Assembly: GCA_034434875.1 (NCBI GenBank)
Contig: DAOTYJ010000142.1
Location: 3,926-67,925, forward strand
Length of the DNA: 64,000 nt
DNA from: Dehalococcoidia bacterium
Lineage (GTDB): Bacteria; Chloroflexota; Dehalococcoidia; JAUQQI01
Direction: 5' to 3'
Shown: positions 1,593 to 59,810 of the stretch, piece by piece
Numbering within the stretch: the first letter of the stretch is position 1
Layout: every line of letters begins with the position of its first letter
Program-made: the position numbers and the translations under genes
Notes under the pieces: generated by a model
What the model was told of the DNA's origin: nothing
Seen by the model: only the letters and a program-made list of their open reading frames with translations
Database searches by the model: none

Positions 1593-2926
1593 GGCCGGGC
1601 ACCCCCGACGATTCCGGCCAGCCGGGCCAGGGTCTCTTCAAAGGGGGTCCTTTCGTCGGGAGCCTGCCGGAGAAACTCCCGGATGGCCGGCATAAGGTCG
1701 ATGGCCAGGTCCACCTCCGGGTTGGTCCCCCGGACGTAAGCCCCGATATTAATGAGGTCTTCCGCCGCCCGGTAGGCGGCCATTACCTGCCGCAGGCGGT
1801 TGGCCAGCCCCAGGTGGGCCGGGTCCACCACCCCGGGCATCACCCGGCTGATGCTTTCCAGGATGTCGATGGCCGGGTAGTGGTTTTCGGTGGCCAGCCG
1901 GCGGGAAAGCTGGATGTGGCCGTCCAGGATGCTCCGGACGGTGTCGGCGATGGGGTCGAGGGGGTCGTCGCCCTCGGTGAGGACGGTGTAGAAGCCGGTG
2001 ATACTCCCCCGGGGGCCGGTGCCGGCCCGCTCCAGCAGTTTGGGCAGGAGGCCGAAAACCGAAGGCGGGTAGCCCTTCACCGTCGGGGGTTCCCCGGCGG
2101 CAAGGCCCACCTCCCGCTGGGCCATGGCCAGCCGGGTCACCGAATCCATCAGCAGGGTGACGTGGGCCCCCCGGTCCCGGAAATACTCGGCGATGGCGGT
2201 GGCCACCCAGGCGGCCTTAAGGCGCATCAGGGCCGGCTGGTCCGAAGTGGAAACCACCACCACGCTCCGCCGAAGCCCCTCGGGGCCCAGGTCTCCCTCG
2301 ATGAAATCCTGGACCTCCCGCCCCCGCTCCCCGATGAGGGCCACCACGCTCACGTCCGAGGCGGTGTGCCGGGCGACCATCCCCAGCAGGGTGGACTTGC
2401 CCACCCCGCTCCCGGCGAAGATGCCCACCCGCTGCCCCCTTCCGCAGGTTAAAAGGCCGTCGATGGCCCGGATGCCCGTAACCAGGGGCTCGGTAATCCG
2501 GGCCCTTTTCAAGGGCTCGGGGGGCGACTGAAGCAGGTAGGTCTGGTCGGATACCTCCAGGGGGCCGAGGCCGTCGATGGGCCGGCAGAAGCCGTCCACC
2601 ACCCGCCCCAGCAGACCCTCCCCGACGGGGACCGTAAAGAGCCGGTGGCCGGGCACGATGATGCTTCCGGGCCGAATCCCCTGCATCTCCCCGAAGGGCA
2701 TCAGCACCAGCCGGCTCTCCCCGCCGTGCTCCCGGAAACCCACCACCTCGGCCGTCACCCGGTTTCCGGCCGGGGGCGAGTAGATGTGGCAGATCTCCCC
2801 CACCGGAAGGGAAAGGCCCACGGCCTCGATGCTCAGGCCGATAACCTGCACCACCCGCCCCTGCCGCCGGACGGGGGGCCCCTCCCGAAGGACTTCTAAA
2901 TAGCGGCGCAGGTCCAGCCCCGTCAC
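1589..2926 (-). CDS. fliI: Flagellar export ATPase FliI
   Basis: GIFAGSGVGKS Walker A, LIGERGREV, LLMDSVTR Walker B, GYPPSVF. Confidence 0.97.
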   Translation of the reverse strand: MTGLDLRRYLEVLREGPPVRRQGRVVQVIGLSIEAVGLSLPVGEICHIYSPPAGNRVTAEVVGFREHGGESRLVLMPFGEMQGIRPGSIIVPGHRLFTVPVGEGLLGRVVDGFCRPIDGLGPLEVSDQTYLLQSPPEPLKRARITEPLVTGIRAIDGLLTCGRGQRVGIFAGSGVGKSTLLGMVARHTASDVSVVALIGERGREVQDFIEGDLGPEGLRRSVVVVSTSDQPALMRLKAAWVATAIAEYFRDRGAHVTLLMDSVTRLAMAQREVGLAAGEPPTVKGYPPSVFGLLPKLLERAGTGPRGSITGFYTVLTEGDDPLDPIADTVRSILDGHIQLSRRLATENHYPAIDILESISRVMPGVVDPAHLGLANRLRQVMAAYRAAEDLINIGAYVRGTNPEVDLAIDLMPAIREFLRQAPDERTPFEETLARLAGIVGGARP

Positions 2927-3561
2927 GGCCGGTACTCCAGCTCGTGGGCCTGCCGGAAGAGCCGGGCCACCTGCCGCAGCCGCTCGCTGGGGGCCGAATC
3001 GATAAGGGTGCTGGCCGTCTCCACCACGCAGCCCCCGACCTCGACCCGGGGGTCGGCCAGCACCCCCAGGTCGCCGTACCTTTCGGCAACCAGCGAACGG
3101 ACAAAGTCGAAATCCTGCGGGTTTACCCGAATCCGGACAACGGTCGCCCCCTCCACCTCCCGCAAGGCCTCCGCCAGAAAGGCCGCCACCACGGCCTGCT
3201 CGTCGGCCTCAAGCCGGCGGGCCAGAATGTGCCCGGCCGCCGCCAGGGCCAGAACCAAAAGCTGCTCCTCGGCTTCCCGCAGAATCCGCCGGTGCTCCAG
3301 CCGGGCCGCCTCCACCAGCCGGCCCAGCCGCCCAAGATACTCCGCCTCTTCGGCCGCGGCGGCGCGCCTGCCCTCGGCCAGGCCCTGCTCAAAACCGGCC
3401 CGGTAAGCCTCGGCCCACACCCGCTCGGCCTCGGCCTGGGCCTCGGCCACGGCCGTCGGTTCGCGGTCGGCCGGGTCGGCGGTTTCGCCGGCCGGCGGCC
3501 CCGCCGGGATGAGCCGGGCCTGCCCGTCGACCCGGGGAAACTTGATAACCCGCTCAGACAA
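2923..3561 (-). CDS. fliH: Flagellar assembly protein FliH
   Basis: AxxxG repeats (AYRAGFEQGLAEG), IRVNPQD, GGCVVET; TTG start with GGAGG RBS overlapping the fliG stop. Confidence 0.88.
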   Translation of the reverse strand: MSERVIKFPRVDGQARLIPAGPPAGETADPADREPTAVAEAQAEAERVWAEAYRAGFEQGLAEGRRAAAAEEAEYLGRLGRLVEAARLEHRRILREAEEQLLVLALAAAGHILARRLEADEQAVVAAFLAEALREVEGATVVRIRVNPQDFDFVRSLVAERYGDLGVLADPRVEVGGCVVETASTLIDSAPSERLRQVARLFRQAHELEYRP

Positions 3562-4558
3562 GGACGTCCTCCCCGCCCCGGGAGATGACGATCTCTTCGG
3601 CCTCATCCAGGCGGCGGATAATGGCCACGATCCGCTGCTGGGCCTCCTCCACCTGCCGGAGGCGCACCGGCCCCATCATCGAAATCTCCTCCCGGAGCAT
3701 CTCGGCCGCCCGGCTGGAAAGGTTGCGGAAAACCTTCTCCCGCAGGGCCTCGGGGGCGCCCCTCAGGGCCATGGCCAGGTCCCGGGTGTCCACTTCCCTG
3801 AGCACCCTCTGCAGCGACCGGTCATCCAGCTGGATGATGTTGTCGAAGACGAACATCTTTTTGCGGACCTCGTTGGCGATGTCGGGAACGTCCTGGTCGA
3901 GCTGTTCGAGGACCGTCTTTTCGGTGCCCCGGTCCACGTAGGTTAAAATCCGCACCAGGGAATCGACCCCGCCCACTGCCGAATAATCCTTGGTCACCAG
4001 GGAGAGCTTGCGCCTCAGGACCGAAACCACCTGCTGGACCACCTCCGGCGGGGTTCGGCCCATGGTGGCGATCCTTTTGGCCACGTCGGCCTGAAGGTCG
4101 GGTTCTAAGGCCGAGAGGAGCTGGGAGGCCTGCCGGGGCGGAAGATGACACAGGATCAGGGCGATGGTCTGGGGGTGCTCGTGCTGGATGAAGTTTAAAA
4201 GCTGCTGGGGGTCCGCCTTGCGCAGAAACTCCAGCGGATAGCCCCCGCTCCGGGCCTCCAGCCTGGAGAGGAGCTCCTCGGCCTTCTGCCGGCCGAGGGC
4301 CCTTATCAGCATCTCCCGGGCGTAGGCGTCCCCGTAAACTACCACCTGGTTGCCCAGGGCCAGCTCGTGGGCCTGCTTCAACACCTCGTTGCGCACCTCG
4401 GCCGGAACCTGCCCCACCCGCATAAGCTCGGCGGCTAAAAGCTCCACCTGGTCCTCGGGCAGCGACTGCAGCACCCGGGCCGAAAGCTCCGGCCCCAGGC
4501 TCATCAGCAGGATGGCCGCCCGCTGGCGGCCGGTAAGCTGGGCTGCCGCCGCCGTCAT
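3554..4558 (-). CDS. fliG: Flagellar motor switch protein FliG
   Basis: LTGRQRAAILLMSLG, EHPQTIALIL, MFVFDNI, NLSSRAAEML. Confidence 0.97.
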   Translation of the reverse strand: MTAAAAQLTGRQRAAILLMSLGPELSARVLQSLPEDQVELLAAELMRVGQVPAEVRNEVLKQAHELALGNQVVVYGDAYAREMLIRALGRQKAEELLSRLEARSGGYPLEFLRKADPQQLLNFIQHEHPQTIALILCHLPPRQASQLLSALEPDLQADVAKRIATMGRTPPEVVQQVVSVLRRKLSLVTKDYSAVGGVDSLVRILTYVDRGTEKTVLEQLDQDVPDIANEVRKKMFVFDNIIQLDDRSLQRVLREVDTRDLAMALRGAPEALREKVFRNLSSRAAEMLREEISMMGPVRLRQVEEAQQRIVAIIRRLDEAEEIVISRGGEDVLV

Positions 4559-4569
4559 TGCCTAATCCC

Positions 4570-6126
4570 TTACTGGGTGCTTTCCTCGTTCAGCCAGCCC
4601 TGAATCACCTGGGCGATAACCTCGGGCCGCTGGCGGGCGATGCCGGTAAGCTGTTCCACGTAGCCCGGGCCCAGCGGCACCGGCGGCTCTTCGGCCGGAA
4701 GCTCCGCCTCCTCCCTGGGGCCCAGGGAAGGCCCCGGCGGGGGGCCGGCGGCCGGCACCGGAACGGCGTAGTAAGTCCGGGTCCGGCGCAGCAGCAGGAA
4801 CACCAGCAGAATCAGGGCCAGGGGAGCCACCACCAGGGCGGCCAGCCGGCCCAGGGCCAGGGTCCGCTCCAGGTCCGCCGGCGGGGCGGGCGCGGCCGTC
4901 TCCTCCGGCCGGGCCTGGAGGGGCAGGGCCGTCACCGTCAGCGTATCCCCCCGATTCGGGTCGATGCCGGCCGCGGCCGCCACCACCTGCCGCAGGCTAT
5001 CAAGCTGGGCCGCCGGCACGGCCCCGGCGTCCACCACCACCCCGACGGAGAGGCGCCGGATTCCCCCCGGCGTCCGCACCACCCGCTCCACGCTCCGGGC
5101 GGCGTCGAAGGTGCTGTTCACCTCCCGCCGCTGGTATTCCGACTGGCCCTGACCGCCGGTCACCGCCGGGTAGGTGGGGACGTTGCTCTCCGCCCCCGGA
5201 ACCCCGCCCGGAACGGTGCCGGTTCCCCGGAAGGTCTCGGTTACCTCCCGGGAAGCCCTGAGGGCCCCGCTGGGATTCCGGGGGTTTAAGGTCTCCACCT
5301 GGGCCTCGTACTGGTCGGTATCCAGCACGGCGCTCACCTGCACCACCGAATTTCCGGCCCCCACCAGCCGGTCCAGGACCGTCTGAACCTTCTGGGCAAG
5401 CTCCAGCTCCACAACCCGCCGCTGCTCCTCCAGCCGGGCGCCGGGGGCGGCGTGGGCGCCGGACCAGAGGAGCCGGCCGGTGTTGTCCACCACCGTGACG
5501 TTTTCGGGTTTTAACCCTTCGACCGCCCCGCTCACCAGGTAGGTGATGGCCCGCACCTGCTCATCCCCCAGCCGGGCGCCGGGCCGGAGCCGGAGCACCA
5601 CCGAGGCGCTGGCCGGCTGGGACCGCTCGGTGAAGGGGCTCGGGCGGGGTAGCACCAGGTGCACCCGGGCTTGCTCGACCCCCTCCAGCCGGCCGATGGT
5701 GCGGGCCAGCTCCCCCTCCAGGGCCCGCTGGTAGTTGACCCGCTGGGCGAAGTCGGTGACGATGAGGCCCGGCTGGCTGAAAAGCTCCAGGCCCCAGCCG
5801 CCGTTCTGGGGCAGGCCGGCGGCGGCCAGCTGGAGGCGCACATCCGGGACCTGGGCCGCCGGCACCAGGATGGTGGCTCCGCCGTCGGCCAGCCGGTAGT
5901 TTACCCCCATCTCCCGGAGCTTGGCCGTTACGGCCGCGGCATCCGACTCGTTAAGGCCCCGGTAAAGGACGGCGTAGTCGGGGTTCTGAAGCCAGCTGAC
6001 GATGGCCAGGGCCAGCGCCGCCCCGAGGCCCACCACGACGATGAGGCCGACCCGCCGCCCCGGGCTTAAAGAGGCCCACAGCTTAAGGGCGCCGTCCAGG
6101 TAGGCTTTAAACTGCCCCTGCCCCAT
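4570..6126 (-). CDS. fliF: Flagellar MS-ring protein FliF
   Basis: Two TM segments, YQRALEGELARTI, ARVHLVLP, ASASVVL; ATG overlaps the fliE stop. Confidence 0.95.
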   Translation of the reverse strand: MGQGQFKAYLDGALKLWASLSPGRRVGLIVVVGLGAALALAIVSWLQNPDYAVLYRGLNESDAAAVTAKLREMGVNYRLADGGATILVPAAQVPDVRLQLAAAGLPQNGGWGLELFSQPGLIVTDFAQRVNYQRALEGELARTIGRLEGVEQARVHLVLPRPSPFTERSQPASASVVLRLRPGARLGDEQVRAITYLVSGAVEGLKPENVTVVDNTGRLLWSGAHAAPGARLEEQRRVVELELAQKVQTVLDRLVGAGNSVVQVSAVLDTDQYEAQVETLNPRNPSGALRASREVTETFRGTGTVPGGVPGAESNVPTYPAVTGGQGQSEYQRREVNSTFDAARSVERVVRTPGGIRRLSVGVVVDAGAVPAAQLDSLRQVVAAAAGIDPNRGDTLTVTALPLQARPEETAAPAPPADLERTLALGRLAALVVAPLALILLVFLLLRRTRTYYAVPVPAAGPPPGPSLGPREEAELPAEEPPVPLGPGYVEQLTGIARQRPEVIAQVIQGWLNEESTQ

Positions 6127-6419
6127 CAAATCGGCATCCGCATGATCTCCTGGTAGGCCTCGACCACCTTATTGCGGACCTGCAGCGCCAGCTGAAGGCC
6201 GAGGCTTGCCCTTTCCAGGGCGAGCATCACCTCGTGGATATCAACCGCCTCCCCAGCGGCCAGGCCGGCCGCCAGCCGGTCGGCGTCCGCCTGGAGGGCC
6301 GAAAGCTTGGCGAGCAGGTCCGTAAAGAGCTTGCCGAAGTCCCCGGAGGCTTCGGGGGCCTGCGAAACCCCGGACAGCCGTGCCGCCCAGGGGGTCGCCG
6401 ATATGCCCTGAATCTCCAC
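6126..6419 (-). CDS. fliE: Flagellar hook-basal body protein FliE
   Basis: IHEVMLALERASLGLQLALQVRNKVVEAYQEIMRMPI. Confidence 0.94.
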   Translation of the reverse strand: MEIQGISATPWAARLSGVSQAPEASGDFGKLFTDLLAKLSALQADADRLAAGLAAGEAVDIHEVMLALERASLGLQLALQVRNKVVEAYQEIMRMPI

Positions 6420-6430
6420 GGCTTAAAACC

Positions 6431-6832
6431 TCAGCGGCCGAGGTCCAGGGCCCGCTGGGCCATCTGGCGCAGGGCATTAAGGGCCGCCACGTTCGCCTCG
6501 TAGGCCCGCACGGCGCTTAAAAGGTCCGTCACCTCGGTTACCAGGTTTATATCGGGCATGGTTACGAAGCCGTCGGGGTCGGCGTCGGGATGTTCGGGGT
6601 CGTAGACCCGGCGGAAGCGGCCCTCCGAAAGGACGGCCGGCACCTGCACCCCAACCCCGCCCGCCCCCGGCGGAACCCACGGGGCGAAGACCACCTTCTG
6701 CCGCCGGTAGGGTCCCCCCTCGGGGGTGCGGGTGGTCTCCAGGTTGGCAAGGTTGCTGGCGATGACGTCCAGCCTGAGGCGCTGGGCCGTGAGGGCCGAC
6801 CCGCTGATCCGAAGGCTTTCCAGCAGGCCCAT
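6431..6832 (-). CDS. flgC: Flagellar basal-body rod protein FlgC
   Basis: SGSALTAQRLRLDVIASNLAN, GPYRRQ, YDPEHPDADPDGFVTMPDIN, RAYEAN; ATG at 6832 preferred. Confidence 0.95.
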   Translation of the reverse strand: MGLLESLRISGSALTAQRLRLDVIASNLANLETTRTPEGGPYRRQKVVFAPWVPPGAGGVGVQVPAVLSEGRFRRVYDPEHPDADPDGFVTMPDINLVTEVTDLLSAVRAYEANVAALNALRQMAQRALDLGR

Positions 6833-6950
6833 GGCTTCGCTTGCTCCGCTCAAAGGCTCCGCCTAGATCTTGGGGCTTAAAGACGTTTGCCGGAAAGGTC
6901 CATCTGGCCACCCGGACCTGGCCGGTTTTCCCGGTAAGGTCGGCCCCCCC

Positions 6951-6978
6951 TGCTTAACCCCCTCAATTTTGCCGATAG
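6951..6978 (+). promoter_or_regulatory. Possible sigma28 (FliA/SigD)-type promoter for flbD-motAB-fliLMN
   Basis: GCCGATAG at 6971-6978 matches the GCCGATAA -10; no good TAAA -35 at 15-nt spacing. Confidence 0.35.
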
Positions 6979-7072
6979 TAAAGACCGGGTGGCATGGGAA
7001 ATCCGTACTATCCCGGCCGGTACCTCCGGCCCTGGTGATGCCCGGCTGCCCGGCGGTAATTTCGGTTCAGGG

Positions 7073-7294
7073 ATGATCAGGCTTTCCCGGCTCGACGGTC
7101 AGGAGTTCGTCTTAAATGCCGACCTTATCGAGACCATCGAAACGACCCCGGATACGGTGATCGGCCTGGTGACCCACCGGAAGCTGGTGGTGCGGGAGTC
7201 GGCCGAGGAGGTGGTAAACCGGGTCATCGCCTACCGGCGGGCCATCGGGTGCCCCCTAAGTTGCGTCCGGCCGACGCTGGAGGCTGAAGCCTGA
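7073..7294 (+). CDS. flbD: Flagellar FlbD family protein
   Basis: MIRLSRLDGQEFVLNADLIETIETTPDTVI...VVRESAEEVV; precedes motA. Confidence 0.9.
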   Translation: MIRLSRLDGQEFVLNADLIETIETTPDTVIGLVTHRKLVVRESAEEVVNRVIAYRRAIGCPLSCVRPTLEAEA

Positions 7295-8109
7295 TGGAGC
7301 TGGGGACGCCCATCGGCCTCGCCGTCGGCTTCGGGGCCCTGCTGGTTGCGGCCGTCCTGGAAGGGGGCGAAATCCACAGCTTCATCCAGGGGACGGCGGC
7401 CCTCATCGTCTTTGGGGGAACCTTCGGGGCCACCCTGGTAAGCTTCCCCTTAAACCGGGTGCTGGGCCTGCCCCGGCTCATCGCCGAGGCCTTTCTCGAA
7501 TCCCACCGCCACGCCCCGGCCGAAATCGTTGAGGTCTTCGTCCAGCTCGCCCAGGTGGCCCGCCGGGAGGGGCTTCTGGCCCTCGAGGAGGAGGCCAACA
7601 AGCTCGGGGACCCCTTTTTAAAAAAGGGCCTGCTCCTGGTGGTGGACGGCATCGACGCCGAGGTGGTGGAAACGGTGCTCGCCACCGACATCCAGGCCCT
7701 TAAGGAGCGCCACGAGGCCGGCTACGGCATCCTGGAGGCGATGGGGGGCTACGCCCCCACCATGGGCATCATCGGCACGGTAATGGGCCTCATCCACGTC
7801 CTTTCGAGTCTGGAGGACCCCTCCAAGCTGGGGCCGGCCATCGCCGTCGCCTTCGTCGCCACCCTTTACGGGGTCTCGTCGGCCAACCTCCTCTGGCTGC
7901 CCCTGGCCACCAAGCTTAAGGCCAAAAGCAAGCACGAGGTCTTCCTGCGGGAGCTGGCCCTGCAGGGCCTGCTGGCCGTCCAGGCCGGGGACAACCCCCG
8001 CATCGTCCGGGAGAAGCTGGAGGCCTTCCTCGCCCCGAGCCACCGGGGCAAGGGGAGTGAGGGCGGCGCCCCCCAGGGTCAGCCCGCGGCGCCGAGGGCG
8101 GCCGGATGA
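7294..8109 (+). CDS. motA: Flagellar stator protein MotA
   Basis: AALIVFGGTFGA, ARREGLLALE, YAPTMGIIGTVMGLI, AVAFVATLYG. Confidence 0.96.
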   Translation: MELGTPIGLAVGFGALLVAAVLEGGEIHSFIQGTAALIVFGGTFGATLVSFPLNRVLGLPRLIAEAFLESHRHAPAEIVEVFVQLAQVARREGLLALEEEANKLGDPFLKKGLLLVVDGIDAEVVETVLATDIQALKERHEAGYGILEAMGGYAPTMGIIGTVMGLIHVLSSLEDPSKLGPAIAVAFVATLYGVSSANLLWLPLATKLKAKSKHEVFLRELALQGLLAVQAGDNPRIVREKLEAFLAPSHRGKGSEGGAPQGQPAAPRAAG

Positions 8110-8876
8110 CGGGCCGAAGCCCCAAAGGGACGGCGACCGCCCCGGCCCTGCTGCGCCGGCCGGGGCGGGAGGGTGCCCAGGGCTCCCACGGGGCCAGCCA
8201 CGAGCGCTGGCTTATAACCTATGCCGACCTTATAACCCTGCTCCTGGTCTTTTTCGTCGTCATGTACTCCATCTCGAAGGCCGACGAGGCCAAATTCGCC
8301 AAGCTCAACGCCTCCCTCCAGCGGGCCTTCAACGTCGTCGTCCTGGAGGGCTACGACCCCACCGCCCTGAGCGGCCGGCCCGGGGGCGCCAGCGGCAACT
8401 CCGTCATCGACGACTTCATCGCCATCCGGAACGACCTGGGCCAGCTGACCGTAAGCCGGCTGCCGGCTACGGGCGTCGACGTCCGGATCAACCGGGAGGG
8501 CATCCTCATCACCATCTCGGGGGCCCTCCTCTTTCCCTCGGGCCGGGCCGACCTCAGGCCCGAATCCCTGCCCGTCCTCGACCGCATCGCCCAGCACCTC
8601 CGCCGTCTGCCCAACGAGGTCCGGATTTCCGGCCACACCGACAACATTCCCCCCGACTCCCCCATTTACCCGACCAACTGGGAGCTTTCCACCGCCCGGG
8701 CCATCGCCGTCGCCCGCTACTTCGCCGAGGGCTGGGGCATCGCCCCGGCAAGGCTTGCGGCCGTCGGCTACGGCGAGTACCGCCCGGTGGCCGACAACTC
8801 CACCCGGGAGGGCCGCATGCGCAACCGCCGGGTTGAAATTCAGATCGTCTACCCCGAGCTTCAGGAGCTGAGATGA
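8106..8876 (+). CDS. motB: Flagellar stator protein MotB
   Basis: RWLITYADLITLL (conserved Asp); OmpA-like domain SGHTDN, NWELSTARA, NRRVEI. Confidence 0.96.
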   Translation: MTGRSPKGTATAPALLRRPGREGAQGSHGASHERWLITYADLITLLLVFFVVMYSISKADEAKFAKLNASLQRAFNVVVLEGYDPTALSGRPGGASGNSVIDDFIAIRNDLGQLTVSRLPATGVDVRINREGILITISGALLFPSGRADLRPESLPVLDRIAQHLRRLPNEVRISGHTDNIPPDSPIYPTNWELSTARAIAVARYFAEGWGIAPARLAAVGYGEYRPVADNSTREGRMRNRRVEIQIVYPELQELR

Positions 8877-9367
8877 AGCCGATAAGCCGCCTCCTTCCCG
8901 TCATCCTGCTGGTGCCGGGGTTCGCCGCCGGCTTCATCCTGGGCCGTACGGCCGCCCTGCCCTTCCTCGACCCGGGCCTGGCCGGCGAGACCGGTCCCAC
9001 CGGCCGGCCCCAGGAGAAGGGCGCGGTGATGTACTCCCTTAAGGAGCGCATTTTTAACCTGGCCGACCCCGGCGGGGGCCGCTACATCAAGCTGGAGGTG
9101 GTTATCGAGTTCGAAGACCCCAAAGCCGCCGGCCTTAAAGGCGAGGCCTACTTAAAGCACCAGGAAGAGTTTGCCAAGGAGCTTGCGCCCGTCAAGCCCC
9201 GCCTGGACGACGTCCTGCTTCGGGCCGTAAGCTCCCGGACAAGCCTGGAGCTTCTCCGGCCGGAAGGGAAGGAGGCCCTCCGGTCGGAGCTCAAAGAAAG
9301 GTTCGGACAGGTGGTCCATGAGGCGAAAATCCGGGATGTCCTTTTTGCCCAGTTCGTCATCCAGTAA
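8873..9367 (+). CDS. fliL: Flagellar basal body-associated protein FliL
   Basis: N-terminal TM, FNLADPGGGRYIK, EGKEALRSEL, VLFAQFVIQ. Confidence 0.9.
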   Translation: MKPISRLLPVILLVPGFAAGFILGRTAALPFLDPGLAGETGPTGRPQEKGAVMYSLKERIFNLADPGGGRYIKLEVVIEFEDPKAAGLKGEAYLKHQEEFAKELAPVKPRLDDVLLRAVSSRTSLELLRPEGKEALRSELKERFGQVVHEAKIRDVLFAQFVIQ

Positions 9368-10292
9368 GCCCAACGTAAAGCCGTACGACTTTCGGCGGCC
9401 GGATAAGTTCTCCAAGGAGCAACTCCGGGCCCTGGAGACGATGTTCAACACCTGGGCCCGGGTGGCGAGCCTCACCCTATCCTCCTACCTGCGGACCCCC
9501 GTCCAGAGCGGTAACATCGAGCTTACCCAGATCCTCTTTGACGAGTACGTTCAGGGCCTGCCGGAGCGGCCGATCATCGCCCTGCTCAGCCTGGCGCCCC
9601 TGCCCGGCACCGTGCTCCTGCAGCTGGATGTCGAGCTGGCCTTCGTCATCGTCGACCGCCTCCTGGGCGGCCCGGGTCAGGTTCCGGGCCACCTGCGGGA
9701 GCCCACCGAGATCGAGGACCGGCTCCTGCGGGAGCTCCTGGGCCAGCTGGTGGCCAACCTGCGGGAGGCCTGGCGAATCCTGGGCAATTTAAACCCCGCC
9801 CTTGAGGACGTTATCTACTCGGCCCAGCCCATCGTCCAGGTGGCCCTGGCCACCGACGCCTGCCTTAAGGGTCAGGTGGAGTTCAACCTTCTGGGCCGGC
9901 CCTGGCGGGTCATCTTCTGCGTGCCCTTCCCCGTCATCGAACCGGTGGCCCGCCAGCTCACCATCCGGATGCTTCTGGACGTCCGGCGGCGGGAGCCCGA
10001 CCGGGGGGAGGGCCTGATTCGGCGGCGGCTGGAACAGACCCAGGTCGACCTGAAGGTGATTTTAGGGCGGGTAAACCTGAGCCTAAAAGACCTTATCGGC
10101 CTCGGGCCGGGGGACGTCATCCGCCTCGACCAGCCCATCGACCGCCCCCTGGAGCTGACGGTGGCCGGCCGGACCAGGTTTTTGGTTCGGCCGGGCCGGG
10201 TGGGCCGGCGCCTGGCGGCCCAGGTCGTGAAAGTCCTTTCGGAGGAGGAAGCGAAAAATGGCCCAAGAGACGCCGGAAGTCAGGCCGGCTGA
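9336..10292 (+). CDS. fliM: Flagellar motor switch protein FliM, N-terminally shortened
   Basis: KPYDFRRPDKFSKEQLRAL, REPTEIE, C-terminal SpoA domain; start must lie inside fliL (9318 or 9336). Confidence 0.92.
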   Translation: MSFLPSSSSSKPNVKPYDFRRPDKFSKEQLRALETMFNTWARVASLTLSSYLRTPVQSGNIELTQILFDEYVQGLPERPIIALLSLAPLPGTVLLQLDVELAFVIVDRLLGGPGQVPGHLREPTEIEDRLLRELLGQLVANLREAWRILGNLNPALEDVIYSAQPIVQVALATDACLKGQVEFNLLGRPWRVIFCVPFPVIEPVARQLTIRMLLDVRRREPDRGEGLIRRRLEQTQVDLKVILGRVNLSLKDLIGLGPGDVIRLDQPIDRPLELTVAGRTRFLVRPGRVGRRLAAQVVKVLSEEEAKNGPRDAGSQAG

Positions 10293-10596
10293 ATTCGCCG
10301 AGCTAAACCCCCAGGGTGCCGGGGCGGCGTCTTCGGCCCCGGGCGGCCTGGAGCTTCTGCTGGACATCCACCTGCCGGTGACCGTCGAGCTCGGCCGGGC
10401 CCGCCTCGCCATCCGGGAGATCCTCCAGCTCGGGCCGGGCTCGGTGATCCCCCTGGACCGGCTGGCCGGGGAGCCGGTGGACGTCCTGGTCAGCGGCACC
10501 CTGGTGGCCCGGGGGGAGGTGGTGGTCGTCGACGAAAACTTCGGGATCCGGATAAGCGAAATCGTCGCCAACCGGCCGGCCGACATTTTAGGCTGA
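10258..10596 (+). CDS. fliN: Flagellar motor switch protein FliN
   Basis: LLDIHLPVTVELGRA, GSVIPLDRLAGEPVDV, ARGEVVVVDENFGIRI; strong GGAGGAGG RBS. Confidence 0.95.
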   Translation: MAQETPEVRPAEFAELNPQGAGAASSAPGGLELLLDIHLPVTVELGRARLAIREILQLGPGSVIPLDRLAGEPVDVLVSGTLVARGEVVVVDENFGIRISEIVANRPADILG

Positions 10597-10645
10597 ATTT
10601 GGCCCGCCGAGCCGACCCAACCGCCCCGCTTAACCCCTCGGTTTC

Positions 10646-10757: not shown

Positions 10758-13265
10758 ATGGGTTCGCAGTTGCCGGTCATGACCCGCTCGCCGGCGGAGT
10801 ATCTCGGGATACCGGTCGGCGAAGACCGGGTTCTGGCCGACTGGGCCCAGGTCGTCGACTATTTCCGCTACCTGGCCGGCGTCGCCCCCTGCGTCCGGGT
10901 GCGGGAGCTGGGCCGCTCGACGGAGGGCAACCCCTTTATCGTCGCCATAATCTCGTCGGAGCAGAACCTTAACCGCCTCGACCACTACCGCTGGATTCAG
11001 CAGCGGCTGGCCGACCCCCGGGGGCTGGACCCGGCCGACGCCGAACGGCTTATCGCCGAGGGCCGGGCCGTGGTCCTGATGACCTGCGGCATCCACGCCA
11101 CCGAGGTCGGGGCGACCCAGATGTCCGTGGAGCTGGCCTACGAGCTGGCCACCGGGGCCGACCCCCGGACCCGGGAGGTCCTCGAAAACGTAATACTGCT
11201 CCTGGTCCCCTCCTTAAATCCCGACGGCCTCAACCTGGTCGCCGACTGGTACCGCCGAACCCTGGGCACCCCTTACGAGGGAACCAGCCCGCCGCAGCTC
11301 TATCACAAATACTGCGGCCACGACAACAACCGCGACTGGTTCATGTTCACCCAGGTGGAGACCCGCCTCACCGTGGAGCACCTACACAACGCCTGGCACC
11401 CCCACATCGTCTTCGACCTCCACCAGATGGCCGTAAACGGCCCCCGGATGTTCCTGCCGCCCTACATCGACCCCATCGACCCCAACGTCGACCCCATCCT
11501 CATCCAGGAGACCAACGCCCTCGGGATGGCCATGGCGGCCGAACTTACCGCCCAGGGCAAGGCCGGGGTGGTGACCAACGTCATCTTCGACGCCTGGTCC
11601 CCCTCCCGGGCCTACCAGCACTACCACGGGGGCGTCCGGATTTTGAGCGAGGCCGCCAGCTGCCGGATCGCCAGCCCGGTAACGGTAAAATTCGAAGAAC
11701 TTACCGAGATTCTGGGCTTCGACCCGAAGGTCGCCACCTGGAACCACCCCCTGGTCTGGCCCGGGGGAACCTGGCGGCTCCGGGACGTGATGGACTATCA
11801 GAAGGTGGCCGCCTACGCCCTTTTAACCCACGCCGCCCGCAACCGGCGGGAATGGGTCCGAAACTTCTACCTGGTGGGCAGGCGGGCCGTCGAGCGCACC
11901 GAACCCCCCTACGCCTTCGTCATACCCCCCGACCAGCACGACCCGGTCCTGACCTTCGAGCTTTTAGAGATTTTAGAGTTTGCGCAGGTGGAGATTTACC
12001 GGGCCCGGGCGGCCTTTGAGGCCGACCGGACCACCTACCCGGCCGGCACCTGGGTCATCCCCCTGGCCCAGCCCTACGGGGCCTTTGCCAAAACGATGCT
12101 GGAGGCCCAGCGCTACCCGGACCTGCGCCAGTATCCGGGCGGCCCCCCGAAGCCGCCCTACGACCTGCCGGCCCACTCCCTCCCCCTTCAGCTCGGGGTG
12201 AACGTCGTCCGGGTGGAGGGGCCCTTCGAGGCCCAGCTCCAGCGGGTGGAGAAGGTTACCCGCCCGGTCGGTTGCATCAAGGGCGGGCCGGCGACCCGGG
12301 GCTACCTGCTGCCGGCGGCCGTAAAGGCCACCGCCCTGGCGGTCAACCGGCTGCTGGCCGCGGGCTTCCGGGTCTGGCGCACCCGCCGGCCCATCGTCGC
12401 GGACGGGGAGGAGCTTCCGCCCGGGACCTGGGTGGTGCTTCAGGCCCCGGGCCTGGAGCAGTTTCTGCCCCCCCTCATCTCCGAGGTCGGCCTCACCGTC
12501 CACACCCTGGAGGCCGCCCTGGACGTGGAGGGCTACGAGGTCCGTCCGCCCCGGCTCGGGGTTTACCGCTCCTGGCGGCCCACCACCGACGAGGGCTGGA
12601 CCCGCTTCGTGCTGGAGCAGTACGGCTTTTCCTACCGGACCCTGCTGGACCAGGATATCCGGCGGGGCCGGCTCCGCAACGACTTCGACGCCATCATCCT
12701 CCCCTCCCAGTCGGCCCGGGGGATCCTTCAGGGCAACTCCCCCCGGGAGTACCCGCCCGAATACTGCGGCGGCCTCGGGGAGCCGGGGATGGCGGCCCTG
12801 CGGGACTTCGTGGCCGCCGGGGGAACCCTCATCGCCCTGGACCGGGCCTGCGACGCCGTCATCCAGGCCCTCTGGCTCCCGGTCAGAAACGTCCTTCAGG
12901 GGGTCAAGCCCGACCGGTTCTACTGCCCCGGGTCCATTTTGCGGATCCTGGTGGACCCGACCCACCCGGTGGCCTACGGCTACCGGCGGGAGGAGGCCGG
13001 AATGTTCGTCAACAGCCCGGCCTTCGAGGTCCAGCAGGGAACGGTCGTGGCCCACTACCCCTTCGCCAACCCCCTCCTGGCCGGCTGGGTCCTGGGCCCC
13101 GAACACCTCTACAACCGGGCCGCCATCGTCGAGGTCCCCCTGGGCAAGGGCCGGGTAATCCTCCTGGGCCTGCCGGTCCAGTTCCGGGCCCAGGCCCGGG
13201 GGACGTATAATTTTCTGTTCAACAGCATCTACCGGTCGACATCGCTACCGGCCGTCATCCACTGA
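10758..13265 (+). CDS. M14 zinc carboxypeptidase-family protein with C-terminal class I GATase-like domain
   Basis: GIHATEVG (HxxE), NPDG, HDNNRDW, FDLHQM; start moved to ATG 10758; no signal peptide seen. Confidence 0.88.
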   Translation: MGSQLPVMTRSPAEYLGIPVGEDRVLADWAQVVDYFRYLAGVAPCVRVRELGRSTEGNPFIVAIISSEQNLNRLDHYRWIQQRLADPRGLDPADAERLIAEGRAVVLMTCGIHATEVGATQMSVELAYELATGADPRTREVLENVILLLVPSLNPDGLNLVADWYRRTLGTPYEGTSPPQLYHKYCGHDNNRDWFMFTQVETRLTVEHLHNAWHPHIVFDLHQMAVNGPRMFLPPYIDPIDPNVDPILIQETNALGMAMAAELTAQGKAGVVTNVIFDAWSPSRAYQHYHGGVRILSEAASCRIASPVTVKFEELTEILGFDPKVATWNHPLVWPGGTWRLRDVMDYQKVAAYALLTHAARNRREWVRNFYLVGRRAVERTEPPYAFVIPPDQHDPVLTFELLEILEFAQVEIYRARAAFEADRTTYPAGTWVIPLAQPYGAFAKTMLEAQRYPDLRQYPGGPPKPPYDLPAHSLPLQLGVNVVRVEGPFEAQLQRVEKVTRPVGCIKGGPATRGYLLPAAVKATALAVNRLLAAGFRVWRTRRPIVADGEELPPGTWVVLQAPGLEQFLPPLISEVGLTVHTLEAALDVEGYEVRPPRLGVYRSWRPTTDEGWTRFVLEQYGFSYRTLLDQDIRRGRLRNDFDAIILPSQSARGILQGNSPREYPPEYCGGLGEPGMAALRDFVAAGGTLIALDRACDAVIQALWLPVRNVLQGVKPDRFYCPGSILRILVDPTHPVAYGYRREEAGMFVNSPAFEVQQGTVVAHYPFANPLLAGWVLGPEHLYNRAAIVEVPLGKGRVILLGLPVQFRAQARGTYNFLFNSIYRSTSLPAVIH

Positions 13266-14125
13266 TGGAGCAGCCCCCGGGCCCCCCGTCGCCCCGCCCG
13301 CCGACGGGCGCGCCGCTGGCCGAGCACGAGCTTATCATGCTCTTCGACCGGCAGGGCCGCCGCTACCCCGTCCGGCTTAAGGCCGGGGGCCGCTTCGACT
13401 TCGCCCGGGGCAGCGTCCCCCACGACCGCATCATCGGCCGGCCGGAAGGGGCCGTCGTCTACTCCTCCGCGGGCGAGCCCCTGGTGGCCGTCCGGCCCCG
13501 GCTGGCCGACTACGTGCTAAAGATGCCCCGGCGCACCCAGATCATCTACCCCAAGGACCTCGGGCCCATCCTGGTCTGGGCCGACATCTTCCCCGGGGCC
13601 CGGGTCCTTGAGGCCGGGATCGGCTCCGGGGCCCTGACCCTGGCCCTTTTACGGGCGGTGGGACCTTCCGGCCTGGTGGTGGCCTACGAGACCCGGCCCG
13701 AATTTTTAAACCTGGCCCTGCGCAACATCGGCGACTTTTTGGGCACACCCCCGAACCTGGTCACCCGCCTGGCCAACGTCTACGAAGGGATCGAAGAGAC
13801 CGACTTAGACCGGGTCCTGCTGGACGTGCCGGAGCCCTGGCGGGCCATTCCCCACGCCGCCCGGGCCCTCCGGCCCGGGGGCATAATCATGGTCTACCTG
13901 CCCACCACTATCCAGGTCCACCAGGCCGTGATGGCCCTGGTGGAACACCCCGACTTCGGCCTCATCGAGGCCTTCGAAACCCTGCACCGGCCCTGGGACG
14001 TAAGCGCCGTGAGCATGCGGCCGGCCCACCGGATGGTGGCCCACACCGGGTTTATCATCATCGCCCGGCGGGTGGTCGGGCCGATCCCCGACAAGCGGGG
14101 CACCCTGCCGGCCGAACCCCCTTAA
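13265..14125 (+). CDS. trmI: tRNA (adenine58-N1)-methyltransferase
   Basis: TQIIYPKDLG, VLEAGIGSGALT, LDVPEPW, HRMVAHTGF. Confidence 0.93.
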   Translation: MEQPPGPPSPRPPTGAPLAEHELIMLFDRQGRRYPVRLKAGGRFDFARGSVPHDRIIGRPEGAVVYSSAGEPLVAVRPRLADYVLKMPRRTQIIYPKDLGPILVWADIFPGARVLEAGIGSGALTLALLRAVGPSGLVVAYETRPEFLNLALRNIGDFLGTPPNLVTRLANVYEGIEETDLDRVLLDVPEPWRAIPHAARALRPGGIIMVYLPTTIQVHQAVMALVEHPDFGLIEAFETLHRPWDVSAVSMRPAHRMVAHTGFIIIARRVVGPIPDKRGTLPAEPP

Positions 14126-14135
14126 AAGACCCGTC

Positions 14136-14179
14136 TTTACAAAACTCTTGCCAAACTTTTACCGAATTCTTACCAAAGG
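14136..14179 (+). repeat. Four tandem 11-bp direct repeats; probable OmpR/PhoB-family binding site
   Basis: TTTACAAAACT-CTTGCCAAACT-TTTACCGAATT-CTTACCAAAGG; AT-rich in a GC-rich genome; TAATAT follows at 14195-14200. Confidence 0.7.
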
Positions 14180-14206
14180 CCGGGGCGTGGGGGCTAATAT
14201 TTTTGT

Positions 14207-14339
14207 GGAACAAAAAGATAAGGCTAGAAAAACCAGCGCCTGGGTCCTTCTGAGGTTTGCCTGCCCTCCTTTCACTCCGGGCCCCAGCGTCCCCACTCCT
14301 CTGCGCCACCGGTCCCGACCGGGGACCGGTGGTTTTTTT
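14207..14339 (+). ncRNA. Candidate small RNA with anti-Shine-Dalgarno motifs
   Basis: Upstream -10 TAATAT, CCCTCCTTTC (14264-14273), CCCCACTCCTCT (14291-14302), intrinsic terminator; 5' end estimated. Confidence 0.55.
14306..14339 (+). terminator. Rho-independent terminator
   Basis: CCACCGGTCCC-gaccg-GGGACCGGTGG followed by T7. Confidence 0.85.
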
Positions 14340-14343
14340 ATCA

Positions 14344-14475
14344 AGCCGCCGGAGCTTAACAATCCGGACCGGGGCTTTCCGCAGGCAACCGCCCGGCCGG
14401 GGCTTACGGCCGTGCGCCTTTACAACCAGGCGACATACCACGGACAACCGGAAAGCCCTGGCCGGTCCGCGGCTC
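14344..14475. ncRNA. Candidate structured RNA element; family and strand unknown
   Basis: Nested stems AAGCCGC/GCGGCTC, GGACCGG/CCGGTCC, GGCTTTCCG/CGGAAAGCC enclosing two internal hairpins. Confidence 0.35.
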
Positions 14476-14547
14476 ATTTCGGGTGGATAGGGAGGCCGGG
14501 GTATAGGGGTATATAAATATTGGGCTGGTGCTTCGGCGCCCCAAGCC

Positions 14548-14576
14548 TTGACTTGGGGGCGGGCAGCCGGTATCTT
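14548..14576 (+). promoter_or_regulatory. Sigma70/SigA promoter of nadK-recN
   Basis: TTGACT-17 nt-TATCTT. Confidence 0.75.
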
Positions 14577-14604
14577 TTGCTCGGAGTCTGCAGGAGCCCG
14601 GGCT

Positions 14605-15435
14605 TTGGACCGCAAAATCGGGATAGTCTTCCAGCCCAAGGTCCCCAACGCCGCCCACTGGGCCGCCGTCGTCCGGGACCGCCTGGCCGAGCTCGGCCTC
14701 GAGGCCTGGGTCGCCGACGTTACCGCCCCCCCATCCCCCCTTAAGGCCGAGCTGGTCATCACCCTGGGGGGCGACGGCACCATCCTGGCGGTAGCCCGGC
14801 TGGCCGCACCCCTGGGGGTCCCCATCCTGCCGGTCAACCTCGGCCGCCTCGGCTTCATGGCCGAGTTCGGCCCCCACCAGCTCCTGGAACGGCTGCCCGA
14901 ACTCCTTCGGGGTGACGGTTGGGTGGAGCGGCGTCGGCTCCTGGCCGCAACCCTTACCCGGTCGGGGGCGGCCGTCCGGGAGCTTCTGGCCTTAAACGAC
15001 ATCGTCATCAGCCGGGGCGGTGTGGCCCGGGTCATCCGGGTCCGCACCCACGTGGACGGAGCCTATCTGACCACCTACGTCGGCGACGGGGTTATCGTCG
15101 CCACCGCCACCGGCAGCACCGCCTACGCCCTGGCCGCCGGCGGCCCCATCCTCCACCCGGAGCTGACCGACCTGCTCATCACCCCGATAAACCCCCACCT
15201 CTCCTTCGACCGGACCCTGGTCGTGCCGGGGGCGGCTAAAATTGAAATGGAGGCCATCGCCGACCACCAGCCCTTTCTGGTCGTCGACGGCCAGGAGCAC
15301 CTGCCCCTCGAGCCCGGGGACCTGGTCGGCGCAACCTTAAGCCCCTACGCCGCAAGCCTTTTGCGCTGGCAGCCCCGAAACTACTTTTACGGCTCGCTGA
15401 TGCGGCGGCTGCGGGGTCGGGATTCGGAGCTTTAA
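14605..15435 (+). CDS. nadK: NAD(+) kinase
   Basis: LGGDGTIL, VNLGRLGFM, ALNDIVI, GDGVIVATATGSTAYALAAGGP; TTG start behind AGGAG. Confidence 0.95.
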   Translation: MDRKIGIVFQPKVPNAAHWAAVVRDRLAELGLEAWVADVTAPPSPLKAELVITLGGDGTILAVARLAAPLGVPILPVNLGRLGFMAEFGPHQLLERLPELLRGDGWVERRRLLAATLTRSGAAVRELLALNDIVISRGGVARVIRVRTHVDGAYLTTYVGDGVIVATATGSTAYALAAGGPILHPELTDLLITPINPHLSFDRTLVVPGAAKIEMEAIADHQPFLVVDGQEHLPLEPGDLVGATLSPYAASLLRWQPRNYFYGSLMRRLRGRDSEL

Positions 15436-21917: not shown

Positions 21918-22487
21918 ATGGCCGAGTCCGTCGAAGCCCTGGTCCGGTTGGCCCAGCAGGGCGACCGCCGGGCCCTCCAGCTTCTCCTGGAGCGTTACCG
22001 GCCCCTCCTGGGCCGGGCGGTTGGGGAGGTGGGCCGCCTTGCCGGCCGGTCGGCCGGCCCGGTGGAGCGGGCCGACCTCTTCCAGGAGGGAGTTCGGATT
22101 CTCATCGAGCTTATTCGGGCTTACGACCCGGGTCGGGGGGTGGGGTTAAATTATTATTTACAGCGCCACCTGCGTTGGCGCCTTTACAACTTCCTGCGTC
22201 GGGAGCGCTGGCGGCTGGGCCGGGAGGTTCCCCTCGCTGAGGGGGACGCCGACCTGGTCGACCCGGCCGCCGACCCCCAGGCCGAGGGGGTATCCCCCCG
22301 CCTCGAGCGGGCCTTAAAGAAGCTTTCCCGAAAACAGCGCTGGGTCCTCTTTTTAACCTACTGGCAGGACCGCTCCGTCGAGGAGATCGCCCGGATTTTA
22401 AAGGTCAAGCCCCGGGCGGTCTGGGCCCTCCGCCGGCGGGCCGAAGACCGGCTCCGCTCCGTGCTGGACGCCCCCGACGGCCCCTGA
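21918..22487 (+). CDS. Sigma-70 family sigma factor (regions 2 and 4 only)
   Basis: ADLFQEG..YDPGRG region 2; LSRKQRWVLFLTYWQDRSVEEIARIL region 4 HTH; 189 aa. Confidence 0.88.
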   Translation: MAESVEALVRLAQQGDRRALQLLLERYRPLLGRAVGEVGRLAGRSAGPVERADLFQEGVRILIELIRAYDPGRGVGLNYYLQRHLRWRLYNFLRRERWRLGREVPLAEGDADLVDPAADPQAEGVSPRLERALKKLSRKQRWVLFLTYWQDRSVEEIARILKVKPRAVWALRRRAEDRLRSVLDAPDGP

Positions 22488-22545
22488 CCGGCCCCTGGAC
22501 GTCGGCCGACCCCGAAGCCTATACTGCCCTGCGGGGGGTCTCCTG

Positions 22546-22755
22546 ATGGAACCGCAGGCCGTCTGGTTCCTCTTTGACCCGGAAAACCGGCCCCTGGGGC
22601 AGACCATGCGGACCGGGCCCGAGACGGTGCCCGCCGTCGGGGCCGTCATAACCGACGGCAAGGGCTGGAAGCGGGCCGAAGTAATCGCCTTTACCGAGCT
22701 GGCCGCCGCCTGCGGCTTTCGCCGCTTCCGGGTTACCGTTCGGGTGGTCGAGTAA
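22546..22755 (+). CDS. Small hypothetical protein
   Basis: 69 aa, non-shadow composition; TGGACG-18-TATACT promoter at 22496-22525. Confidence 0.55.
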   Translation: MEPQAVWFLFDPENRPLGQTMRTGPETVPAVGAVITDGKGWKRAEVIAFTELAAACGFRRFRVTVRVVE

Positions 22756-27195: not shown

Positions 27196-27726
27196 CTAGC
27201 GGCCCTGCAAGGACCGGATGAAGGCTACCAGGGCCCAGCGGTCCGATTCGGAGATCAAATTGCGCCAGGGGGGCATGTAGCGGGTTCCGTCCCGCTCGAC
27301 CCCGTTGGTAATGTACCAGAAGAGCTCGCCGTCGGTCCGGCCCAGGACCGGCTCGGCCGTAAGGTCCGCCGGCAGGGGCTTCTGGGCGGCCCGGAAGTAG
27401 GCGGCGATGATGCCGTTGCCCTTGCCCTGCTCCCCGTGGCAGGCCGCGCAGTTAACCAGAAAGACCTGCCGGCCCCGGTCCACCGTCTGCTGGGTCCGGG
27501 GCAGGGGGTTGGTCAAGTTCCGGGCCTGCTCCAGGGTGTAGTCCACCTCCCGGCCGGTTATGGGAACCGCCCCCGGCGGCGGGCTCAGCCGGGGCGGCTC
27601 CTGCCGCTTGTAGCTCCCCTGGTAGTGCATCTCATTGAAGATATCCAGGGGGTAACTGCCCGGTAGGCAGGCCGTAGCCAGCAGGAGAAGGGGTATCAGG
27701 CCGAAAAGAATCCGGGCCCGGCCCAT
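27196..27726 (-). CDS. actE: ACIII monoheme cytochrome c lipoprotein (ActE-like)
   Basis: Lipobox ATAC, EMHYQ, RPPGAVP-like PPPGAVP, CAACHG. Confidence 0.87.
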   Translation of the reverse strand: MGRARILFGLIPLLLLATACLPGSYPLDIFNEMHYQGSYKRQEPPRLSPPPGAVPITGREVDYTLEQARNLTNPLPRTQQTVDRGRQVFLVNCAACHGEQGKGNGIIAAYFRAAQKPLPADLTAEPVLGRTDGELFWYITNGVERDGTRYMPPWRNLISESDRWALVAFIRSLQGR

Positions 27727-27727
27727 C

Positions 27728-28270: not shown

Positions 28271-28271
28271 C

Positions 28272-29642: not shown

Positions 29643-29648
29643 GGCCCC

Positions 29649-31716: not shown

Positions 31717-31742
31717 AGCCGTTACTCCCCCCGCAAAGGCTC

Positions 31743-33998: not shown

Positions 33999-34010
33999 CG
34001 TTAACCCCTC

Positions 34011-34577: not shown

Positions 34578-34586
34578 ACCTTGGGC

Positions 34587-57637: not shown

Positions 57638-57652
57638 AAATGGTGGGTTCCG

Positions 57653-59634: not shown

Positions 59635-59658
59635 GGCGGCCGGCAGGAATCGGCGGCC

Positions 59659-59746
59659 AATGGCCGAAAAAGGGGGCCGAACGGCAATTTCCGGGAGTTG
59701 AACGCCACCGCCCCCGTTGAGGGGCCGATTTTAAAGCCGTTAGCAT
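59659..59746 (+). promoter_or_regulatory. acs promoter with 21-bp-periodic repeats upstream
   Basis: AATGGC, AACGGC, AACGCC at 59659, 59680, 59701; TTGAGG-18-TAGCAT at 59717-59746. Confidence 0.5.
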
Positions 59747-59810
59747 TGATCGGGTACCGGTTCCGTCCCCTGAGCGTGCCTTTTGCACATCTGGCCGGGA
59801 GGTGCAACCG

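Follow-up and report, generated by a model that had tools for sequence, protein, structure and literature searches.

In a 64,000-nt stretch of DNA from a Dehalococcoidia bacterium (contig DAOTYJ010000142.1; hereafter the window), we describe a conserved unit at 14136-14339 on the + strand, located in the gap between trmI and nadK, that we identify with modest confidence as the gene for a trans-acting small RNA (sRNA) of ~133 nt in the 3′ untranslated region (UTR) of an M14-peptidase/trmI operon. The source lineage is one of ~70% GC Chloroflexota metagenome-assembled genomes (MAGs) labelled "Dehalococcoidia". This identification is carried by the way in which the unit is conserved, as comparison with its relatives strongly supports purifying selection in the pattern of a promoter followed by an RNA gene, and as its anatomy, non-coding status, strandedness and boundaries can be read from the aligned sequences. 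The RNA is probably an ordinary base-pairing regulatory RNA of an uncatalogued family.

Relatives of the unit were found through TrmI and DNA-pattern searches and comprise the MAGs L001, L002 and L083, Logan/ENA contigs (L084-87) and metagenome contigs (L090-93), giving an aligned set of eight distinct variants. Two other matches from the metagenome scan, L088 and L089, were set aside as chance matches, being real ribosome-binding sites on the opposite strand. TrmI identity falls from 89% to 62% with nothing between, and we thus place all variants in one genus-level lineage, for which the public data hold no intermediates. Within this lineage, a 70-nt core of the RNA has no differences in 7/8 lineages, as compared to differences of 8-37% at the fourfold-degenerate sites of trmI. 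For a pair differing at 30% of these sites, ~21 changes would be expected in the core, and the probability of observing none is of the order of 1e-11. The eighth lineage, L087, has three core changes, all of them transitions. Conservation is sharply partitioned along the unit: mean identity is 37% over the 10 nt from the trmI stop to the first of four repeated boxes, 84% over the boxes (with invariant cores and free bases between them), 58% over the indel-free spacer that separates box 4 from the -10 element, 93% over the -10 element and an overlapping palindrome, 78% over the next 15 nt (with +1- and -1-nt indels), 98% over a 73-nt core and 88% over the terminator. The original prediction had proposed a search of the trmI-nadK interval in relatives for covariation; the unit is strongly conserved in them, and covariation is nearly absent. 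The features of the unit and of the gene upstream are the following.

13265-14125, + strand: trmI, encoding tRNA m1A58 methyltransferase; an open reading frame (ORF), with Pfam GCD14 and TrmI-like_N on the called gene.
14136-14152, + strand: repeat unit A, TTTACAAAACTCTTGCC, made up of box 1 and box 2; from repeat scans and the alignment.
14158-14174, + strand: repeat unit B, TTTACCGAATTCTTACC, made up of box 3 and box 4; matches unit A at 14/17 positions, with an offset of exactly 22 bp downstream.
14175-14194, + strand: promoter spacer of fixed length and free sequence; 58% mean identity over 14177-14194, with no indel in any variant.
14195-14200, + strand: -10 element TAATAT; the T, A and final T are invariant, with TAAGAT in L002, L087 and L091.
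14200-14216, + strand: palindrome TTTTTGT-GGA-ACAAAAA, an inverted repeat across the -10 element and the predicted start.
14207-14339, + strand: predicted non-coding RNA of ~133 nt, bounded by the -10 element and the terminator.
14217-14231, + strand: variable A-rich 5′ segment, 78% mean identity; -1 indels in L084 and L093 and a +1 indel in L091.
14236-14290, + strand: central stem, pairing GCGC 14236-14239 with GCGU 14287-14290 and GGGUCC 14242-14247 with GGGCCC 14279-14284.
14264-14273, + strand: C/U-rich motif 1, CCCTCCTTTC; unpaired probability ~0.64-0.72; invariant save for one C-to-U change in L087.
14291-14302, + strand: C/U-rich motif 2, CCCCACTCCTCT, in the linker before the terminator; unpaired ~0.6-0.8; invariant in 8/8 variants.
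14306-14339, + strand: intrinsic terminator with arms 14306-14316/14322-14332 (11 bp, 100% complementary), a 5-nt loop and a T7 run at 14333-14339.

The strand of the RNA is indicated by three observations in combination. The T-run follows the hairpin on the + strand only, the stems hold G-U pairs that are possible on the + strand only, and the three L087 transitions keep or add pairs: A14235G creates an extra G-C pair with C14291, C14288U turns the G-C pair at 14238/14288 into G-U, and C14269U, which lies in motif 1, can still wobble-pair with G. The central stem encloses a 31-nt interior that includes motif 1, and folding predictions at 37 and 60 °C leave the two C-rich motifs ~60-80% unpaired in every variant. 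At the 3′ end, a GC-rich hairpin is followed by a T-run on the transcribed strand, as in intrinsic terminators, and changes among the relatives fall in its loop only, apart from one compensatory U-A to C-G replacement in L087. A covariance model (R1) has this RNA as its sole match in the window, at 174.5 bits.

A coding function fits these sequences poorly. ORFs of 29-48 codons do run through the core on the + strand, as does one of 67 codons on the minus strand, and on this basis the unit might encode a small protein. However, 1-nt indels in the 5′ segment shift the frame of the core relative to the sole upstream start codon (the GTG frame, broken in L084, L093 and L091), and the minus-strand ORF begins in non-conserved DNA. 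The second + frame lacks a usable Shine-Dalgarno sequence, opening 1 nt past its sole candidate, GAGG, and it meets no stop before it has crossed the terminator and entered DNA without homology. Neither a start nor a stop is conserved for any ORF, and the 70 nt show no synonymous-type changes, such that we regard a small protein as hardly credible. Known RNA families fare no better: no Rfam covariance model matches the window at the gathering score, and at E <= 10 the region 14050-14620 returns chance matches only, such as microRNAs and small nucleolar RNAs on the terminator. The Rfam check called for by the original prediction thus places the unit in no catalogued family. Public gene calls on the identical contig leave the 480-nt trmI-nadK gap empty and start nadK at TTG 14605, so that the unit is also unannotated at its source, as had been claimed.

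Upstream of the RNA, the four boxes are found as first described, in phase at 11 bp and in the position of the -35 element, followed by the -10 element TAATAT. Box 1 (TTTAC, 14136-14140), box 2 (CTTGCC, 14147-14152), box 3 (TTTAC, 14158-14162) and box 4 (CTTACC, 14169-14174) follow one another at an exact 11-bp period. The best description is a pair of 22-bp units that share a 17-nt core, TTTACnrAAyTCTTrCC, and TRF likewise reports them as period 22 x 1.9 copies with an 80% match. Unit A is invariant in 7/8 variants except at one C/T position, and the cores of unit B are invariant in 8/8. A TTDMC-N6 x4 pattern (<=2 mismatches) has a single occurrence in the 64 kb and is found in 0/100 shuffles. 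As this pattern was built from the very site it detects, more weight goes to the eight-variant alignment, in which the box cores are invariant and the bases between them vary, as expected for phased protein-binding sites. Outside the lineage, the degenerate four-box pattern has ~39 matches (L098-L136), many of them in Pedobacter/Parapedobacter, and one deltaproteobacterial contig holds several copies. These exceed the few expected from uniform base composition and probably reflect AT-rich composition or an unrelated repeat.

The box 4 to -10 spacer is 20 nt long and GC-rich. Because 19 nt separate the -10 element from TTACCA, the -35-like hexamer within box 4, a generic sigma-70 scan calls no promoter at the unit. 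Judged from its spacing to the -10 element, transcription would start at ~14207, ~7 nt after TAATAT, without a usable -35 element since box 4 is too distant. The lack of such an element makes it probable that the promoter depends on a sequence-specific activator, which would bind four half-sites on one helix face. Relative to the predicted start, the boxes are centred at ~-69, -57, -47 and -35 and span ~-71 to -33, where activators typically bind. Direct repeats at a 10-11-bp period, the proximal one overlapping or replacing the -35 element, mark promoters of the OmpR/PhoB type, and the four half-sites, at 11 bp and with the last centred at ~-35, have this layout, which is characteristic of OmpR/PhoB-type winged-helix proteins. 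Taken together, the invariant cores on one helix face, the free bases between them and the spacer of fixed length but free sequence are the signature of an activator-dependent promoter of this type. ToxR-like and SARP proteins, which have the same winged-helix fold, fit the boxes equally well.

Other readings of the upstream region were considered and rejected. A sigma-28 reading, CAAA-N15-GCTAATAT, was prompted by the adjoining flagellar genes; its -35 part varies among relatives (CCAT, CCAA, CATC, CATT), and the CGA core of its -10 element is also absent. A LytTR-type site with a period of ~21-22 bp fits less well than four 11-bp half-sites, given that both halves of each 22-bp unit are conserved. 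Phased A-tract curvature is disfavoured in that the relatives conserve TTRCC and not the A-tracts that follow boxes 2 and 4. The palindrome over the -10 element and predicted start, whose arms of 6-7 bp are kept in 7/8 variants (with one mismatch in L087) and which is longer in L083 (TATTTTTGT/ACAAAAATA), may be a repressor operator. It does not fit the consensus sequences for CRP/FNR, LexA or Fur operators, nor the Rex box, TTGTGAA-N4-TTCACAA, and is not known to match any other operator consensus.

The same conserved DNA could in principle act without an RNA on the + strand, either as a minus-strand promoter for a trmI antisense RNA or as the boundary of a recombination or insertion hot spot. 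Read on the minus strand, the boxes (TGGYAA-N5) loosely resemble a sigma-54 site (TGGCAA-GAGTT-TTGTA), and the sequence right after the terminator differs among lineages. Yet every variant reads TTGT where the -12 element of a sigma-54 promoter has its near-invariant GC, and there is no minus-strand gene upstream to serve. A scan for a minus-strand -10/-35 pair found none, which speaks against the possibility, raised at the outset, that the repeats serve a minus-strand promoter only. Neither idea accounts for an invariant core combined with a + strand terminator, and a feature of DNA alone is, in our view, very improbable.

The position of the unit raises a more serious alternative. The trmI stop codon TAA occupies 14123-14125, box 1 begins 11 nt past it, and no terminator lies between, so the trmI transcript must traverse the unit up to a shared terminator at 14306-14339, and the unit doubles as the 3′ UTR of the M14-peptidase/trmI operon. 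The unit might accordingly be a 3′ UTR element of the peptidase-trmI mRNA and nothing more, whether cis-acting, with a role in stability or termination control, or a type II processed sRNA without its own promoter, the boxes serving something else. In line with this, the unit is attached to trmI in 8/8 variants while its downstream side changes, and the generic promoter scan calls nothing here. Against it, the upstream part carries a DNA-type signature (5-6-nt cores at 11 bp, a free spacer of fixed length and a conserved TAAkAT), and the 10 nt from the stop codon to box 1 share just 37% identity. We consider an exclusively 3′ UTR role unlikely, if the most serious of the alternatives. An sRNA gene with its own promoter is compatible with the shared terminator, and the same RNA could additionally come from processing of the trmI mRNA. 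The claim of a complete transcription unit is thereby narrowed: the unit is non-coding and has promoter-like and terminator boundaries, and the terminator, with its perfect 11-bp stem and T7 run, is common to the trmI operon, such that the unit is not isolated.

Type I 3′ UTR sRNAs of enterobacteria, such as MicL and DapZ, are transcribed from a promoter where the upstream coding sequence ends, or just beyond, and have a terminator in common with the mRNA. The unit likewise shares its terminator with the trmI mRNA; it differs in that its predicted promoter, which the conservation pattern supports, lies wholly downstream of the stop codon, and in that no Hfq dependence is known.

Downstream, homology among the relatives stops at the T-run, ahead of four different contexts: nadK itself (L001 and L084), nadK preceded by an insert of ~190 nt (the window), nadK preceded by a ribbon-helix-helix gene (L091), and a convergent CPBP/Rce1-like gene (L002, L083 and L087). 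From these changing contexts, we conclude that the unit goes with the 3′ end of trmI and is no leader of nadK. That it might act in cis on nadK, as a leader or riboswitch-attenuator, is suggested by the window, L001 and L084, where a structured RNA ending in a terminator precedes nadK; this is contradicted by the three lineages in which the convergent gene comes next and by the gene that intervenes in L091. In addition, nadK has a sigma-70-type promoter of its own (TTGACT-17-TATCTT, 14548-14576), which is conserved in relatives, and the Rfam scan of the unit gives no match to an NAD+ or other riboswitch. We give almost no credence to a leader function. The nadK gene itself spans 14605-15435, with its start most likely at TTG 14605 after AGGAG (276 aa) and not at TTG 14548 of the longest ORF.

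The insertions themselves are worth recording. The ~190-nt stretch within 14340-14547 is specific to the window's lineage, where it is identical in L094 and L095; it shows a weak 34-nt similarity (82%) to 63888-63921 and has no Rfam match. It is missing from L001 and L084, in which just ~35-55 nt separate the terminator from the nadK promoter. In L091, the small gene between the RNA terminator and nadK lies at ~2800-3030 (minus strand of the locus), and its product (MPRLVVQLKAEQVRRLREAAAAAGVSMAELVRRAV...) resembles a ribbon-helix-helix (CopG-like) protein by eye. The site just past the RNA terminator seems to tolerate or attract insertions.

Returning to the reading of the unit as an sRNA gene, we infer a mechanism in which the activator and its family, the inducing signal, the mode of pairing and the targets are all provisional. 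Once the activator had bound the boxes, transcription would run from ~14207 to the hairpin-T7 terminator, which is also the end of the trmI mRNA. The resulting RNA would begin with an unstructured A-rich segment, have a single central stem and expose two C/U-rich stretches, the latter found at the two places, 14264-14273 and 14291-14302, where C-rich motifs had been pointed out. These stretches would most likely pair with the G-rich ribosome-binding sites of several mRNAs and block initiation. Such pairing is the most economical proposal because the motifs are accessible, because canonical Shine-Dalgarno sequences are in use (GGAG, GAGG or a longer match in 31/57 start regions) and because RoxS/RsaE, 6C and NfeR1 provide precedents.

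The last nine bases of motif 1, CCUCCUUUC, are identical to the canonical 3′ tail of 16S rRNA. This identity also lends itself to a different view, in which the RNA is real and does not pair with Shine-Dalgarno sequences, instead binding or sequestering a protein or mimicking the 16S 3′ tail as a decoy for a factor that recognises it. Two further observations agree with that view, namely that ~90 nt are uniformly invariant, rather than short seeds only, and that the window holds no Shine-Dalgarno-specific target signal. On the other hand, the RNA is without repeated protein-binding motifs like the GGA of CsrB-type RNAs, it matches neither 6S nor any other Rfam family, and at a fourfold divergence of <=37% it is not extraordinary for a pleiotropic base-pairing sRNA to be fully identical. 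We judge an RNA of this other kind distinctly unlikely. A bolder version, in which mimicry of the 16S tail through CCUCCUUUC, kept invariant inside the ultraconserved ~90 nt, would make the RNA a global sponge for Shine-Dalgarno-led mRNAs or a decoy for a factor that recognises the ribosomal anti-Shine-Dalgarno tail, switched on by the regulator of the boxes, is speculative and should be given little weight; if true, a Chloroflexota lineage would have a programmed means of damping Shine-Dalgarno-dependent initiation across its genome.

Several results count against the unit being an activator-controlled, Shine-Dalgarno-pairing sRNA gene. Both the existence of the RNA and its start site are deduced from sequence. 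The RNA body folds no better than shuffled sequence (z = -1.34), the fold being unexceptional on either strand (z = -1.34 and -1.72). Covariation is almost absent, with one compensatory pair, which is in the terminator; outside the terminator, it is essentially lacking because the sequences are too similar. No homologue was found outside the genus-level lineage, with nhmmer, blastn and the eight-variant covariance model detecting no unit in 78 trmI loci of other Chloroflexota and of other phyla. Box 1 is missing in L087. The invariance of ~90 nt exceeds what seed pairing alone needs. As to the targets, duplex energies for the 57 start regions of the window are no better than those for random genomic windows (-33.1 vs -34.2 kcal/mol), and complementary 10- and 11-mers in the window are neither enriched nor located at start sites. 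The 9-mer CCTCCTTTC has 1 match in the window vs 0.99 expected and is present in 61/100 shuffles.

These results bear unevenly on the original prediction. Its nine-nucleotide identity to the 16S 3′ end stands with respect to the canonical tail, while CCTCCTTTC on its own is not rarer than chance. Its notion of an anti-Shine-Dalgarno repressor is plausible by precedent; the motifs are predicted to be mostly unpaired, and the target scans of the window were uninformative. Control by a response regulator is likewise plausible by precedent; no OmpR-family regulator was found near the unit, and the only response regulator in the window is of the LytTR type (58867-59634), ~45 kb away. Stress induction, and a link to phosphate or envelope stress in particular, found no backing: no other 17-nt box unit (<=2 mismatches) was found in ~241 kb of this genus, the strict four-box pattern has this promoter as its only match in the three MAGs of the genus, and two-box matches are not enriched (15 vs 9.9 expected).

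When compared to known systems, the unit is most reminiscent of RoxS/RsaE of Bacillus and Staphylococcus, whose C-rich regions pair with Shine-Dalgarno sequences and whose gene is activated by the response regulator ResD (PMC4409812). Both would be stand-alone RNAs of ~100-130 nt with C-rich stretches (in the unit two, ~60-80% unpaired by prediction) and an intrinsic terminator, and the RoxS/RsaE promoter is activated by the upstream-bound OmpR-family proteins ResD/SrrA. Sequence and structure do not match, however, and the phylum is another: the RoxS/RsaE covariance model has no match in the window at the gathering score, nor in 14050-14620 at E <= 10. The motifs of the unit are CCCUCCUUUC and CCCCACUCCUCU, placed in a large interior loop and a linker, respectively, as opposed to the CCCC/UCCC motifs in hairpin loops of RoxS/RsaE, and this is not the RsaE arrangement. 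The unit also has four phased boxes where RoxS/RsaE has a single ResD site near -65, and it is without a Rex-type operator. In Bacillus subtilis, RoxS directly represses the NAD kinase mRNA ppnKB (PMC4409812). We treat the parallel with a unit that adjoins nadK in some lineages as a coincidence, as the 9-bp complementarity is not conserved: nadK was considered as a conserved target and rejected, the match upstream of its Shine-Dalgarno sequence in the window (GCTCGGAGT) being lost in L084 (GTACGGAAT).

The anti-Shine-Dalgarno seeds of NfeR1, an RNA whose transcription is set by dedicated regulators that include a two-component response regulator (PMC10746234), provide a second comparison. The alpha-r14/NfeR1 RNAs of alpha-proteobacteria resemble the unit in having redundant, ultraconserved, unpaired anti-Shine-Dalgarno seeds, including CCUCC, with many potential targets. 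The unit differs from them in belonging to an unrelated phylum and in having two non-identical motifs, neither of which is in a hairpin loop; the exact "cuckoo" motif CCUCCUCCC, which those RNAs repeat in hairpin loops, is absent from 14207-14339, and there is no Rfam match. In the 6C sRNA, single-stranded C-rich regions pair with mRNAs by multiple G-C pairs and without a chaperone (PMC6486639). The 6C RNAs of Actinobacteria share with the unit a high-GC host, but they display C-runs of at least 6 C in two hairpin loops, whereas the unit has one central stem plus the terminator and no match to the 6C covariance model.

At the level of the promoter, the closest parallels are OmpR/PhoB-regulated sites (pho boxes, the Bacillus PhoP repeat TT(A/T/C)ACA and the RpaB site HLR1), which share with the unit direct repeats spaced by a helical turn in 22-bp pairs and a promoter-proximal repeat that replaces the -35 element. 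RpaB is itself known to control an sRNA, PsrR1 (PMC6525291). Box 1 (TTTACAAA) fits the HLR1 half-site (G/T)TTACA(T/A)(T/A), although the period of HLR1 is 10 bp and that of the unit 11. Among the published sites that could be checked, none matches the box consensus TTTAC / CTTRCC.

Chloroflexota have, to our knowledge, almost no described regulatory RNAs, and this uncultured lineage has none. The locus is an sRNA candidate backed by comparative evidence, which could seed a new Rfam family and could offer an entry point to the study of post-transcriptional control in these bacteria. It opens no new mechanistic category, being a lineage-restricted candidate of a known mechanistic kind, and supports the idea of a repeated rise of C-rich, Shine-Dalgarno-targeting sRNAs under dedicated control in unrelated phyla.

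Elsewhere in the window, we observe a flagellar/motility cluster at ~3500-10600 (fliH, fliG, fliF, fliE, a rod protein gene, flbD, motA, motB, fliL, fliM and fliN), which is notable in that Dehalococcoidia/Chloroflexota are usually regarded as non-flagellated. The LytTR response regulator (58867-59634) is paired with a LytS-like histidine kinase (57653-58870) within 55829-63752, flanked on one side by a DUF485/SSF-type transporter and on the other by two acetyl-CoA synthetase genes, a layout that points to an uptake-sensing module for acetate or pyruvate. An ECF-type sigma factor (189 aa) at 21918-22700 is followed by a 69-aa ORF without a Pfam match, which may be an anti-sigma factor. Finally, an Alternative Complex III-like cluster occupies ~27700-34600 on the minus strand (multihaem cytochrome c, molybdopterin, FeS, two NrfD-type, ActD and cytochrome c components), with cupredoxin genes nearby.

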